In this document: piece by piece, positions 307 to 5,553 of the stretch | Layout: each line of letters begins with the position of its first letter | Position numbering within the stretch: position 1 is the stretch's first letter | Assembly (NCBI GenBank): GCA_046760225.1 | Contig: JBHIDR010000023.1 | Location: 1 to 12,169 of the forward strand | Direction: 5' to 3' | Length of the DNA stretch: 12,169 bases | Origin: Candidatus Aenigmatarchaeota archaeon | GTDB taxonomy: Archaea > Aenigmatarchaeota > Aenigmatarchaeia > Aenigmatarchaeales > JACQIB01 | The notes under the pieces: model-generated | What the model was told of the DNA's origin: nothing | Database searches by the model: none | Seen by the model: the letters and a program-made list of their open reading frames with translations, nothing else | Made by a program: the position numbers and the translations under genes

Positions 307-747
307 CTACTCACCTTTCTCAATCAGGAGGTTGTTCTCTTTCAGGTATGTCTTCAGGTGCGCCCTGCTCCTGAAGCCTCCTCCCTTGATTTTTCTGTAG
401 ACCTTCCTGTAGGCAAGCGGTTTCAGCTTGCCGTCCTTCTTGTATTCCAGCAGCAATTTCCTCTGTGGCCTTACCATCTTCAGCCAGTCTGTTTTCTTGC
501 CTTCCCTTGCTCCTTTCCTTCCCTTCCTGCTTCCTGTCCTCTGCTTCCTGTATACTATCCTTTTCCTTTTCTTTACAGGAAGCTTTTTGATTATCCCATC
601 ATCAATCATCCCTCTGATATCAGACCTTGTTATGGCCTTCTTTATTCTTGGTGCTGCTGACGGATCCATCCATACCCTGTTCACCCCGCATTTCAGTATC
701 TTTGCTGCAAGCTTTCTTTGGGAATTTGATGTACTGTGCTGTCTCAT
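307..747 (-). CDS. rpl19e: 50S ribosomal protein eL19 (L19e)
   Basis: QRKLAAKILKCGVNRVWMDP, AITRSDIR, GSRKG and VYRKIKGGGF motifs. ATG at 747 is preferred over the track's GTG at 759, which overlaps the stop of the upstream microprotein. Confidence 0.96.
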   Translation of the reverse strand: MRQHSTSNSQRKLAAKILKCGVNRVWMDPSAAPRIKKAITRSDIRGMIDDGIIKKLPVKKRKRIVYRKQRTGSRKGRKGAREGKKTDWLKMVRPQRKLLLEYKKDGKLKPLAYRKVYRKIKGGGFRSRAHLKTYLKENNLLIEKGE

Positions 748-755
748 AAAACCAC

Positions 756-914
756 TCACGTATTATGGCTCTCCCTCTCACTTCCTTCGCTTATTATTCC
801 GAATTCTGAAAATATTGCATTGCATAAAGGACACACCAGTATCTCCTTGTCATTTTTCCATTTCCTTCCCCTTATGCCGCACGTCGGGCAGTTTTTTATC
901 GATATCATGAACAT
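756..914 (-). CDS. 52-aa zinc-ribbon (CPxCG-type) microprotein of unknown function
   Basis: Hand translation: MFMISIKNCPTCGIRGRKWKNDKEILVCPLCNAIFSEFGIISEGSERESHNT*. It has two Cys knuckles (CPTCG, CPLCN) and fills the eL32-eL19 gap almost exactly. ATG is 4 nt after the eL32 stop in the context GAAGTGA-TTTT-ATG. Alternative start at 908. Confidence 0.8.
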   Translation of the reverse strand: MFMISIKNCPTCGIRGRKWKNDKEILVCPLCNAIFSEFGIISEGSERESHNT

Positions 915-918
915 AAAA

Positions 919-1383
919 TCACTTCTCCTTCTTCTCCTCAGGTTTTTCTTTTGGTTTTTCTTCCTTCTTCTCCTCTTTTGGTTTTTCTTCCTTCTTCTCT
1001 TCTTTTTTTACTTCCTTCTTCTTTGCCTTTTTCTTTTCGGCCTTTTTCGGGTTCAGTATTTTGATTTTCTTTTCTTGTGCCTTCTTGATTATATCTCCCC
1101 TCTTCTTCCTTCCCACAGTAGAGGCTATCTTTATGCATTCTTTCCCTGGTTCTATCCTGTCCAGTTCTGATGTATTTCGCACAACCACCTCAACTAGACC
1201 GCACGGGTGCTTGCCTCTCATGGACTTCGGGCTGCCATAACCAACTGTTGGTATGAATCCCTTTCCTTTGATATGCTTCCTTAGTTTCGATTGCTTTCCC
1301 TTGGGTGCTCTCCACTTCTTTCCTAATGAAACTTTTCTGAACCATTCCTGCCTTAGGAACTTTTGTTTCTTTTTTGGATTCAT
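919..1383 (-). CDS. rpl32e: 50S ribosomal protein eL32 (L32e) with Lys/Glu-rich C-terminal tail
   Basis: FLRQEW, WRAPKGKQSKLR, VGYGSP, RGKHPCG and IASTVGRKKR motifs. Start is ATG 1383 (after GGAGGT) or ATG 1389. Confidence 0.96.
   Translation of the reverse strand: MNPKKKQKFLRQEWFRKVSLGKKWRAPKGKQSKLRKHIKGKGFIPTVGYGSPKSMRGKHPCGLVEVVVRNTSELDRIEPGKECIKIASTVGRKKRGDIIKKAQEKKIKILNPKKAEKKKAKKKEVKKEEKKEEKPKEEKKEEKPKEKPEEKKEK
947..999. repeat. Two-copy tandem repeat with 27-bp period inside the eL32 tail (EEKKEEKPK x2)
   Basis: tcttttggtttttcttccttcttctc occurs at 947-972 and again at 974-999. Confidence 0.8.
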
Positions 1384-1385
1384 GC

Positions 1386-1916
1386 TCATGACCTCCCCAC
1401 AAGGAAGCAGCCGTCCTGGAAAACTCTCCTGTCTCTTGCAGGTACTTTGGTTGCCTGCTCTATGTTGGTTGCTGTCTGGCCTGCTTTTTCTATGTCTGTT
1501 CCTGTGACAGTTATCTCATCGCCCTTTATCTCGACCTTTGTGCCTTCCAGTATTCTGGCTTTCCTCGGGAACTTCTCTCCGAGGAAGTTTGTGATATGCA
1601 CCTCGTCCCCGGAAACCTTCACTGTCATAGGAAAATGAACATAAACTATCTTCAGCTTGTACTTCCACCCGTCCTTCACTCCCTTTATCATGTTCCTTAT
1701 GTGGGCGGCTATGCAGCCCACTTCTGCCTTTACCTTTCTTTTGTCGCTCTTTGACTTCACAACAACCTTGTCATCCACCTTCTCTATGGTTATGAGCTTT
1801 GAAAAGATGGGACTGGAAAAATCTTTTTCAAGCTCGCCTCTCTCCCCTTTCACATTTACCTTAAGTCCCTTGACTGCAACCTCAGTCCCCTCAGCTATCT
1901 TGACTGTCTTTTCCAT
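1386..1916 (-). CDS. rpl6: 50S ribosomal protein uL6
   Basis: VKGERGEL, AAHIRNMIKGV, YVHFPM, NFLGEK and DRRVFQDG motifs. ATG 1916 follows AGGTG; the track's 1925 is a GTG inside the SD. Confidence 0.97.
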   Translation of the reverse strand: MEKTVKIAEGTEVAVKGLKVNVKGERGELEKDFSSPIFSKLITIEKVDDKVVVKSKSDKRKVKAEVGCIAAHIRNMIKGVKDGWKYKLKIVYVHFPMTVKVSGDEVHITNFLGEKFPRKARILEGTKVEIKGDEITVTGTDIEKAGQTATNIEQATKVPARDRRVFQDGCFLVGRS

Positions 1917-4755: not shown

Positions 4756-5037
4756 TCACCACTTTCTTATTCTTATTTTTATCCTGTCTTCAGGCCTCAG
4801 CTCTATTGTCTTTCCCCTGACCTTTACCTTTCTTTTGTCAGGCAGCGTGAAAATGAAGTCTGATGTTGCTTTACCTATTTTCTTTATTCCTTTTTTTGTC
4901 CTCATTACCAGTGTCTTCTTTGTTTCATTGACCACTTTTCCTCTTACGCCTACCAGTGTCTTGTTCCTGCTCTCTGCAACCTCTGCATCGAGCCCTATGA
5001 GTTCATGCCTCACGAGGTTCTTGGCCGTTATCGGCAT
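4756..5037 (-). CDS. rnp1: Ribonuclease P protein component 1 (Rpp29/Pop4)
   Basis: ITAKNLVRHELIGL, GKVVNETKKTL and LRPEDRIK motifs; canonical position between SUI1 and uS17. Start is ATG 5037 or 5043. Confidence 0.95.
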   Translation of the reverse strand: MPITAKNLVRHELIGLDAEVAESRNKTLVGVRGKVVNETKKTLVMRTKKGIKKIGKATSDFIFTLPDKRKVKVRGKTIELRPEDRIKIRIRKW

Positions 5038-5039
5038 TT

Positions 5040-5336
5040 TCATTCAACCTCTATCTGGTCTGGTGAAAAGCCTGCCTTTATCAGCAGGTCCTTCACACGC
5101 ATCTTGTGATTGCCCTGCAGTTCTATCTTGCCTTCCTTGAAGGTGCCTCCGCACGCGAGCTGCGACTTCAGCTTCTTTGTGAGCTCCTTTGCATCCTTCT
5201 CGATTCCTTCCACAATGGTCACCCACTTCCCGTACGACCTCCTAACATTATAGACCTTTATTTTTGCGGCCTCCTTTGCCATTGCCCCGCATACGCAGAG
5301 TTCCCTAGGCAAACCACAAACTTTACATACTGCCAG
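5040..5336 (-). CDS. sui1: Translation initiation factor aIF1 (SUI1 family), predicted CTG start
   Basis: (M)AVCKVCGLPRELCVC zinc-knuckle N-terminus, RRSYGKWVTIVEG, LKSQLACGGT and IELQGNH. The position where the initiator Met is expected is CTG (5336-5334), preceded by GGAGGCGA with a 6-nt spacer. The track's start at 5450 lies deep inside rpl29. Confidence 0.93.
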   Translation of the reverse strand: MAVCKVCGLPRELCVCGAMAKEAAKIKVYNVRRSYGKWVTIVEGIEKDAKELTKKLKSQLACGGTFKEGKIELQGNHKMRVKDLLIKAGFSPDQIEVE

Positions 5337-5553
5337 TTGTTTTCGCCTCCTTTTTCTTTTTCCTTTGTTTGAGTTCAGTGAGTATCCTTGCCATTGTCTT
5401 TCTTGTTTCACTGACACGTCCGGTATTGCTGGGACTTCCTCCAACAGCAATCTGCGCTCTTTCCTTGGACAGTTCCATCTTCAGCTCTGCCAGCCTCTTG
5501 CGCAAATCATCCTCACTCATCTCATGGATTTGTCTGATTCTGATAATCGCCAT
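5323..5553 (-). CDS. rpl29: 50S ribosomal protein uL29
   Basis: MAIIR...EMS...L.ELKMELSKER...GGSPSNTGRV...RKTMARILT. ATG 5553 is preferred (alternatives 5562, 5559). The 3' end overlaps the aIF1 start by 14 nt. Confidence 0.95.
   Translation of the reverse strand: MAIIRIRQIHEMSEDDLRKRLAELKMELSKERAQIAVGGSPSNTGRVSETRKTMARILTELKQRKKKKEAKTTGSM
5343..5350 (-). promoter_or_regulatory. Strong Shine-Dalgarno site (GGAGGCGA) for the CTG-initiated aIF1 gene
   Basis: One mismatch to the archaeal GGAGGTGA consensus. The 6-nt spacer to CTG equals the AGGTGA-GTAGAA-ATG spacing of rpl18 in this operon. Confidence 0.75.

Follow-up and report, generated by a model that had tools for sequence, protein, structure and literature searches.

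A conserved zinc-ribbon microprotein gene between rpl32e and rpl19e in Aenigmatarchaeota

Small zinc ribbons and the gene array examined

Few gene arrays in biology are as conserved as the S10-spc cluster, and several described proteins can be compared with the small gene found within it here. Ribosomal protein eL43 (L37ae, PF01780), the product of a small translation-linked gene, has a single C4 ribbon with C-P-x-C knuckles and a phenylalanine four residues past the last cysteine. Acidic C-terminal tails that recruit partners are known from the ribosomal P-stalk proteins and from the carrier protein LysW, in which a small globular or zinc-ribbon body bears a flexible acidic tail with a conserved end. 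The haloarchaeal one-domain C(P)XCG microproteins, for example HVO_0758 and Brz, and the aS21/HVO_2753 family are archaeal proteins of fewer than 70 amino acids with C-P-x-C-G knuckles, and archaeal ribosome structures include chains of HVO_2753-like proteins (9e71_Bc in the PDB, and a Zn-ribbon RNA-binding protein in 9fny and 9qf4). The C(P)XCG group is a descriptive class, not a single family; for Haloferax, the available text of two reports describes 43 micro-proteins that carry two C(P)XCG motifs and differ in their roles (PMC10716476, PMC6562870). Ribbons of the TFIIB, TFS and RpoP types share the same general fold, and, in the accessible part of PMC10833476, their genes are often embedded in archaeal ribosomal clusters.

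The window, that is, the whole stretch of 12,169 nucleotides that was analyzed, belongs to a genome of 851,505 bases in 83 contigs that is about 83% complete. Its (-) strand carries a typical archaeal S10-spc cluster, with uL3, uL4, uL23, uL2, uS19, uL22, uS3, aIF1/SUI1, RNase P Rpp29 and uS17 in the first part and uL14, uL24, eS4, uL5, uS14, uS8, uL6, eL32, eL19 and uL18 in the remainder. Apart from the gene reported here, the operon holds solely ribosomal proteins, aIF1 and Rpp29. An earlier note on this DNA had described a 52-amino-acid frame with the pattern CPTCG-x14-CPLCN, starting 4 nt after the eL32 stop codon and ending 8 nt before the eL19 ATG. The open reading frame listing of the window confirms the frame, which starts with ATG, and both spacings. 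We refer to this zinc-ribbon microprotein as ZR (MFMISIKNCPTCGIRGRKWKNDKEILVCPLCNAIFSEFGIISEGSERESHNT); its two knuckles, C9-P-T-C12-G13 and C28-P-L-C31-N32, are separated by 14 residues. Positions are collected in Table 1. The eL19 gene could alternatively start at a GTG at 759 instead of the ATG at 747. GAGG- or GGTG-type runs lie just upstream of the ZR start in most relatives, and among the sequencing runs listed, four DNA runs from one study, and no RNA run, contain the locus.

Table 1. Positions of the ZR gene, its sequence elements and other features of the window
Feature	Position	Strand	Basis or remark
ZR CDS	756..914	(-)	Stop codon 756-758, ATG 912-914; homologues and purifying selection
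ZR zinc knuckle 1, C9-P-T-C12-G13	876..890	(-)	Conserved columns
ZR zinc knuckle 2, C28-P-L-C31	822..833	(-)	C28 and C31 invariant
ZR F-x-[E/D]-F-G motif (F35-S-E-F38-G39), after knuckle 2	798..812	(-)	Conserved columns
ZR C-terminal tail, residues 40-52	759..797	(-)	Predicted flexible, acidic
4-nt spacer and eL32 3' end, with purine-rich GGAG-type run upstream of the ZR ATG	915..944	(-)	Sequence
rpl32e (eL32), upstream neighbor	919..1389	(-)	Pfam PF01655, E 1.2e-34
eL32 C-terminal tail	919-1050	(-)	Beyond the Pfam domain (residues 8-113)
rpl19e (eL19), downstream neighbor	307..747	(-)	PF01280, E 1.5e-22; PF25476, E 1.2e-19
Cysteine of the eL19 L-K-C-G motif	~685-700	(-)	
Rpp29	4756-5043	(-)	In the ZR operon
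aIF1/SUI1	5040-5450		In the ZR operon
ORF of 392 aa	10150-11328	(-)	Upstream of uL3
ORF of 287 aa	11300-12163	(-)	Upstream of uL3

The product resembles eL43 in having one C4 ribbon, C-P-x-C knuckles of similar spacing (x14 in eL43, x15 in ZR) and the phenylalanine after the last cysteine. It resembles the haloarchaeal microproteins and the aS21/HVO_2753 family in its length and C-P-x-C-G knuckle, and the transcription ribbons in its general fold. To the P-stalk proteins and LysW the likeness is an analogy only, that of a small body with a flexible acidic tail; the ZR tail, which typically ends in a hydrophobic residue followed by T, S, N or A, is unlike the end motifs of the stalk proteins or of LysW.

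Conservation, distribution and operon position of ZR

ZR is a real, strongly conserved gene. Searching with the single protein found homologous open frames in 53 of 61 related genomes (E<=1), the best of them at E 1e-14 to 4e-16 with 40-56% identity. Among 40 coding sequences taken from the loci, pN was lower than pS in 778 of the 780 pairs, and dN/dS, a calculation proposed in the earlier note, came to 0.07-0.39 in the closest pairs, which indicates purifying selection. The four cysteines are invariant in 40/40 of these sequences and are encoded by both TGT and TGC; the proline, glycine and phenylalanine columns also have mixed codons. Knuckle 1 keeps its C, P and C in 40/40 and G13 in 36/40, and the F-x-[E/D]-F-G motif keeps F35 in 38/40, F38 in 40/40 and G39 in 39/40. 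An alignment of 20 ZR sequences (A1) has C9, P10, C12, G13, G16, C28, C31, F38 and G39 invariant, with W19, P29 and F35 (at least 90%) near-invariant. Homologues exist, and both the frame and the four cysteines, the loss of which the earlier note had considered as evidence against the gene, are kept in them.

A profile built from 76 members of the family matches 224 of the 301 genomes sampled from Aenigmatarchaeota (the name used in the source labels) at E<=1e-3. With f-numbers denoting families within the phylum, ZR is near-universal in f3 (15/15), f24 (35/35), f19 (22/23), f10 (32/34), f21 (11/11), f9 (9/9) and f18 (8/8); matches are weak or absent in f22 (23/58, scoring only near 1e-4), f16 (7/19), f23 (7/17) and f11 (1/5). 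Two genera within the family of the window lack ZR as well. With a profile of the same kind, only 88 of 1.84 billion representative proteins match at E<=0.001, nearly all of them 47-62 amino acids long; at 50% identity there are about 80 clusters. Seven of the nine proteins with a label are named Candidatus Aenigm(at)archaeota, and the two labeled 'Micrarchaeota' and 'Nanoarchaeota' are identical in sequence to ZR in genomes of the window's order. The same phylum name is carried by all three labeled clusters among ten divergent members, and by at least eight records from a scan with a degenerate ZR DNA motif; that scan returned at least 120 stretches, and among those listed 15 were true ZR members and 5 others were chance ribbon matches. 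Going by these source labels and by how few proteins the all-protein search turned up, ZR appears confined to Aenigmatarchaeota (DPANN), as far as labeled members show. The sole candidate for a fused or longer form, P0202, was rejected: in this TniQ protein, weak scores from numerous tandem ribbons simply add up.

The gene is usually found in the same place. The earlier note had suggested looking for homologues between rpl32e and rpl19e, and ZR lies there in 32 of the 39 relatives' loci; in the others it is beside eL19 at a contig edge (two loci), after eL32 only (one) or elsewhere (four). The first 19 loci all have ZR between the two genes and on the same strand. The 20 more distant ones comprise 13 with ZR between both genes and all seven of the exceptions just listed, and in the one where ZR follows eL32 the operon is broken. 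Of 31 relatives' loci, 28 have no more than 25 nt between the ZR stop and the eL19 start, and in 14 the two overlap by 4 nt; the gap between eL32 and ZR is at most 25 nt in 22/32. The coupling of ZR to the operon is as firm an observation as the gene itself, the selection on it and its distribution, and we infer that it is co-transcribed with its neighbors. In one group, a gene for a 207-amino-acid MBL-fold (metallo-beta-lactamase) protein has been inserted between eL32 and ZR, and ZR still overlaps eL19. This insertion, at L008:875-1498 (+) and also in loci L012, L015, L020 and L060, has overlapping stops and starts on both sides.

Departures from this arrangement are also found. In families f15 and f19, the operon stops short of eL19, with ZR staying behind eL32. 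In family f14, ZR is outside any translation operon and convergent with an AmmeMemoRadiSam-type radical-SAM gene in 9/9 loci examined (L045, L047, L050 and L235-L240), where it abuts that gene. In one of these loci (L047) ZR follows EF-1alpha, an adjacency absent from the other eight. The tail of the f14 proteins is longer and ends in F-[EQ]-D-N or similar. In six genomes lacking ZR, two of which belong to genera of the window's own family, eL32 abuts eL19, with anything from an 8-nt overlap to an 81-nt gap and no ORF between them; a seventh such genome was not counted, having eL32 off the locus. These six genomes bear out the statement of the earlier note that rpl32e and rpl19e are normally adjacent, and the accessible part of PMC10833476 agrees, describing L32e and L19e as usually adjacent in archaea, DPANN included.

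Because the position is kept in relatives, and because eL32 and eL19 abut where ZR is absent, ZR is an insertion into the S10-spc operon, strongly retained over most of the phylum but open to loss. Since it is missing from whole families and from two genera of the window's own family, it is not essential. Such losses, which leave no trace and have occurred repeatedly, would also be expected of a zinc-finger protein like the haloarchaeal C(P)XCG micro-proteins, unrelated to translation and active for instance in stress response or regulation, that simply profits from a strongly expressed operon. The position outside the operon in f14, a composition unlike that of ribosomal proteins and the diverse roles of the Haloferax micro-proteins mentioned above all agree with such a passenger. 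A gene of this kind would, however, have little reason to keep its position across most families of the phylum, to overlap eL19 by 4 nt in nearly half of the loci, or to stay with one of its two ribosomal-protein neighbors after the operon has been rearranged, and we consider this explanation somewhat unlikely.

Comparison of ZR with known ribbon families

ZR belongs to an undescribed family of stand-alone C4 zinc ribbons and falls in no described family. The protein has no match above cut-off in Pfam-A 2025 (best 19.9 bits, against 23.2) or in NCBIfam 20.0 (best 14 bits, against 60), and no description of the family was found in the available text of the literature searched, including PMC6393860 and PMC9258230. 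The earlier note could not match the frame to eL37, eL40, eL43, eS27, eS31, RpoP or Nop10, and the absence of any Pfam match agrees with this. All of these except eL40 are encoded elsewhere in the genome: above the Pfam cut-off we found eS31, eL43, RpoP, eL37, eS27, Spt4, an HVO_2753/aS21-like protein, TFS, eL24, eL42, eL34 and Nop10, while eL14 and eS26 match below cut-off only and an eL40 candidate is unmatched in Pfam. A relocated standard ribosomal protein or RNA polymerase subunit, which the earlier note had named as the kind of clear match that would change its view, was therefore rejected, there being no match in Pfam or NCBIfam and the standard proteins being encoded elsewhere. When the 76 family members were scanned against Pfam, the matches at E<=0.01 were to generic ribbons only (Prok-RING_1 in 15, Zn_ribbon_3 in 14, the TFIIB ribbon in 11), and the 25 families matched most frequently include no ribosomal one.

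By sequence comparison, eL43 appears to be the nearest known ribbon, with a likeness at the level of the general fold, and this is why some members carry the JGI label 'L37AE/L43A'. In hhalign comparisons of the ZR profile with the ribbons of the genome, eL43 came first (88.8% over 38 columns), followed by the aS21-like protein (81%), the TFB-type ribbon (76%) and TFS (73%), and then by RpoP (51.5% over 12 columns), eS31 (40%), eL37 (27%), Spt4 (8%), the eL40 candidate (7%) and eS27 (2%). That ZR is a shortened eL43 paralogue, a standard ribosomal protein relocated or duplicated, would fit this first place, the naming of 10 of 120 listed members as 'ribosomal protein L37AE/L43A' by JGI, the top row in Foldseek (T. 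kodakarensis eL43, E 1.2) and one Atlas cluster with PF01780 on 57% of its members. The sequences themselves speak strongly against it. PF01780 is absent from the ZR matches even at E<=1, as well as from the 25 families just mentioned, whereas the true eL43 of the genome scores 97 bits on it. When the ZR profile is compared with an alignment of 29 eL43 sequences, the hhalign value falls to 77.2%, within the 73-81% that unrelated ribbons reach. The basic G-R-[YF]-G-x-R-Y-G N-terminal arm and the C-P-x-C-E-R, G-I-W-x-C and A-G-[GA]-A-Y motifs, which vary little or not at all among the 29 eL43 sequences from relatives (alignment A5), are all missing from the ZR alignments A1 and A2, and ZR is near neutral instead of basic. 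Canonical eL43 is moreover present alongside ZR, in 39 of 41 relatives, so that we regard a paralogue of eL43 as very improbable.

Other members of the family are annotated 'rubredoxin', 'rubrerythrin' or 'TiaS', or not at all. A defined signature, namely M-[FY]-hydrophobic stretch, C-P-x-C-G-x2-G, C-P-x-C-x3-F-x-[ED]-F-G and an acidic tail ending hydrophobic-[TSNA], would improve the annotation of a protein that pipelines now miss or misname.

Transcription ribbons are the other group to which weak matches point, and ZR might be a small extra RNA polymerase subunit or a factor of the TFB, TFS or RpoP kind that lies in a ribosomal operon by chance. The TFIIB-type ribbon PF08271 (cut-off 29 bits) is matched by 11 of the 76 members at E<=0.01 (best 2.9e-5; the window's ZR is not among them), a PDB sequence-profile search has the C-ribbon of TFS4 in second place (E 0.008), and the TFIIB N-domain and Pol I/III ribbons are among the top Foldseek rows. 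RNA polymerase subunit genes do occur in archaeal ribosomal-protein clusters, according to the available text of PMC10833476, and the near-neutral pI of ZR fits a protein-protein adaptor. Nevertheless, the PF08271 matches represent generic ribbon likeness only; every similarity is below the family cut-offs, and the hhalign values for the TFB-type ribbon and TFS are no better than those for eL43 or the aS21-like protein. ZR differs from these ribbons in standing alone and in having its own F-x-E-F-G motif and acidic tail. In addition, the genome has canonical RpoP, Spt4 and TFS, and the spc part of the cluster is without an RNA polymerase gene in the part of PMC10833476 available. A role in transcription is thus unlikely. 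ZR was rejected as RpoP/Rpb12 (PF03604) in particular, as it has no PF03604 match and canonical RpoP is encoded beside eL43.

Two further candidates were set aside. An aS21/HVO_2753-like identity (PF07754) does not agree with the four cysteines of ZR, as HVO_2753-type proteins have eight in two sites; PF07754 is unmatched and no significant sequence match was obtained (E 0.6-4.6), whereas the genome's own PF07754 protein scores 69 bits (E 3.1e-19). The first place in the PDB sequence-profile search is taken by an ArfGAP finger (E 0.0036), and 3 of the 76 members match Pfam ArfGap (PF01412) at E<=0.01. Residues 6-41 of ZR align with PDB 3sub_A through the common pattern C-x2-C-G..W..C-x2-C-x3-[FH]-x2-[FL]-G. 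The match spans a 36-residue finger only, out of a full domain of about 120 amino acids that a protein of 52 amino acids could not hold. The arginine after the fourth cysteine is catalytic in ArfGAP, and the residue of ZR aligned to it is N, S or E. The likeness is probably a convergence of small fingers.

Structural models agree with this picture. The mean AlphaFold pLDDT is 78.5 for the window's ZR and 81.5 for a typical family member, with about 91-92 in the core (blocks 11-40) and 54-70 in the last 13 residues. The predicted core is all-beta with two knuckles. Structure prediction followed by Foldseek, also proposed in the earlier note, gave no row against the PDB at E<=0.001 for either model, whether to a ribosomal protein, TFIIB or RpoP; the top rows were eL43, a Trm112-like protein, the TFIIB N-domain, NudC and, among the weak ones, LysW. 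The best VIA-align score over 48,161 chains was Z 3.8, to Rieske knuckles, and the ESM Atlas returned generic ribbon clusters only. Overall, the prediction for ZR is a generic ribbon fold followed by a flexible, acidic tail.

Candidate roles at the ribosome

The charge of ZR sets it apart from its neighbors. Its pI is 7.7, with 13% K+R, whereas the 20 other operon products in the window have pI values of 9.4-11.3; the family median is 7.6 (range 4.1-9.9), with 79 of 173 members below 7. A near-neutral pI is atypical for a protein buried in rRNA, which argues against an integral ribosomal protein threaded into it. In the 173 sequences of the family, the core averages a net charge of +2.6, and the tail, with a median length of 14 residues, averages -1.9. 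The core has conserved basic and aromatic positions together with glycines (G16, W19, K/R20-21, F35, F38, G39). The last position but one is taken by F, W, I, L, V or M in 140/173 and the last by T, S, N or A in 142/173. About 81% end hydrophobic-[T/S/N/A]; the N-T of the window's ZR is a minority form. This conserved dipeptide at the end of a flexible acidic tail looks like a docking peptide.

Reading ZR as a ribosomal protein or translation factor is what we infer from the position of its gene, and since the operon also carries the non-ribosomal aIF1 and Rpp29, position alone does not make it ribosomal. An accessory, ribosome-associated role is plausible. The reading that we prefer, with a probability of roughly 0.4, is that ZR may be a dispensable, peripheral ribosome-associated protein, either an accessory on the large subunit or an escort for a basic neighbor, acting at the ribosome or on the way to it. 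Dedicated escorts for single ribosomal proteins are known in eukaryotes. ZR would be made in step with the large-subunit proteins, and would then either bind the surface of the large subunit or accompany a very basic neighbor such as eL19. The compact ribbon core, with its conserved basic and aromatic residues, would do the binding, and the flexible acidic tail with its hydrophobic-[T/S/N/A] end might serve as the docking peptide for a partner. Cryo-EM still finds proteins of unknown function on archaeal ribosomes, as stated in the part of bioRxiv 10.1101/2024.11.12.623245 available, which is a precedent and not evidence for ZR.

A stronger version would make ZR a true new, lineage-specific protein of the large-subunit surface near eL19 or eL32, whose free acidic tail, with its hydrophobic-[T/S/N] end, might recruit a translation partner in the manner of the stalk tails. 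We hold this to be doubtful. If it were true, a reduced DPANN lineage would have added a part to its ribosome and not only lost parts.

The non-ribosomal members of the operon suggest another role, in which ZR would be a partner of an RNA-processing or translation factor, for example of Rpp29 or aIF1, or an RNA-binding autoregulator of the operon, and not a component of the ribosome. Rpp29 and aIF1/SUI1 do share the operon with ZR, and Rpp21, the usual partner of Rpp29, is itself a zinc-ribbon protein, with two N-terminal helices that bind Rpp29 and a C-x2-C-x25-C-x2-C ribbon, according to the available text of PMC4919917. Rpp21 was not found in the window genome and is rare in its order. Across the phylum, however, 261 of 301 genomes have Rpp21 (PF04032), and so do most of the families that bear ZR (f24 33/35, f19 22/23, f10 31/34, f9 9/9), so ZR is no replacement for it. 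Apart from this co-occurrence, by which a substitute for Rpp21 was ruled out, ZR has only 8 residues before its ribbon, is without the N-terminal helices and has a knuckle spacing of x15, not x25. As to an autoregulator, no Rfam family matched anywhere within the window and no RNA element was detected around ZR. Taken together, these points make a role of this kind quite unlikely. In the window's order itself, Rpp21 was detected in 3/15 genomes of f3, 0/3 of f4, 1/3 of f2, 0/2 of f5 and 0/2 of f8, a scarcity that could be due to loss or to strong divergence.

To our knowledge, there have been no direct studies of DPANN ribosomes. It is rare for a protein-coding insertion to persist within the S10-spc cluster across most of a phylum, and, as a ribosome-associated protein, ZR would mark a candidate lineage-specific part or helper of the DPANN translation machinery. 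Being short and easily expressed, ZR would suit pull-down and structural studies. Even if unrelated to the ribosome, it would illustrate how small genes colonize highly expressed operons.

Some further features were noted along the way. The eL32 C-terminal tail in the window comprises about 40 residues, almost all K, E or P, and its length varies widely between relatives. Neither of the two long ORFs that precede uL3 matches Pfam at E<=1e-5. The cysteine of the L-K-C-G motif of eL19 is present in 31/31 loci with ZR and in 2/6 without it, a small sample that is confounded by kinship. Elsewhere in the window's genome (G000), a 37-amino-acid stand-alone ORF at G000:C6:8474-8587 (-) matches the TFIIB zinc ribbon above cut-off (34.8 bits) and may represent a free ribbon or else a TFB that has been split or truncated. 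Finally, a very basic ORF of 69 amino acids at G000:C4:34170-34379 (+) matches the SWIB/MDM2 domain above cut-off (E 1.6e-7), an unusual find in an archaeon.
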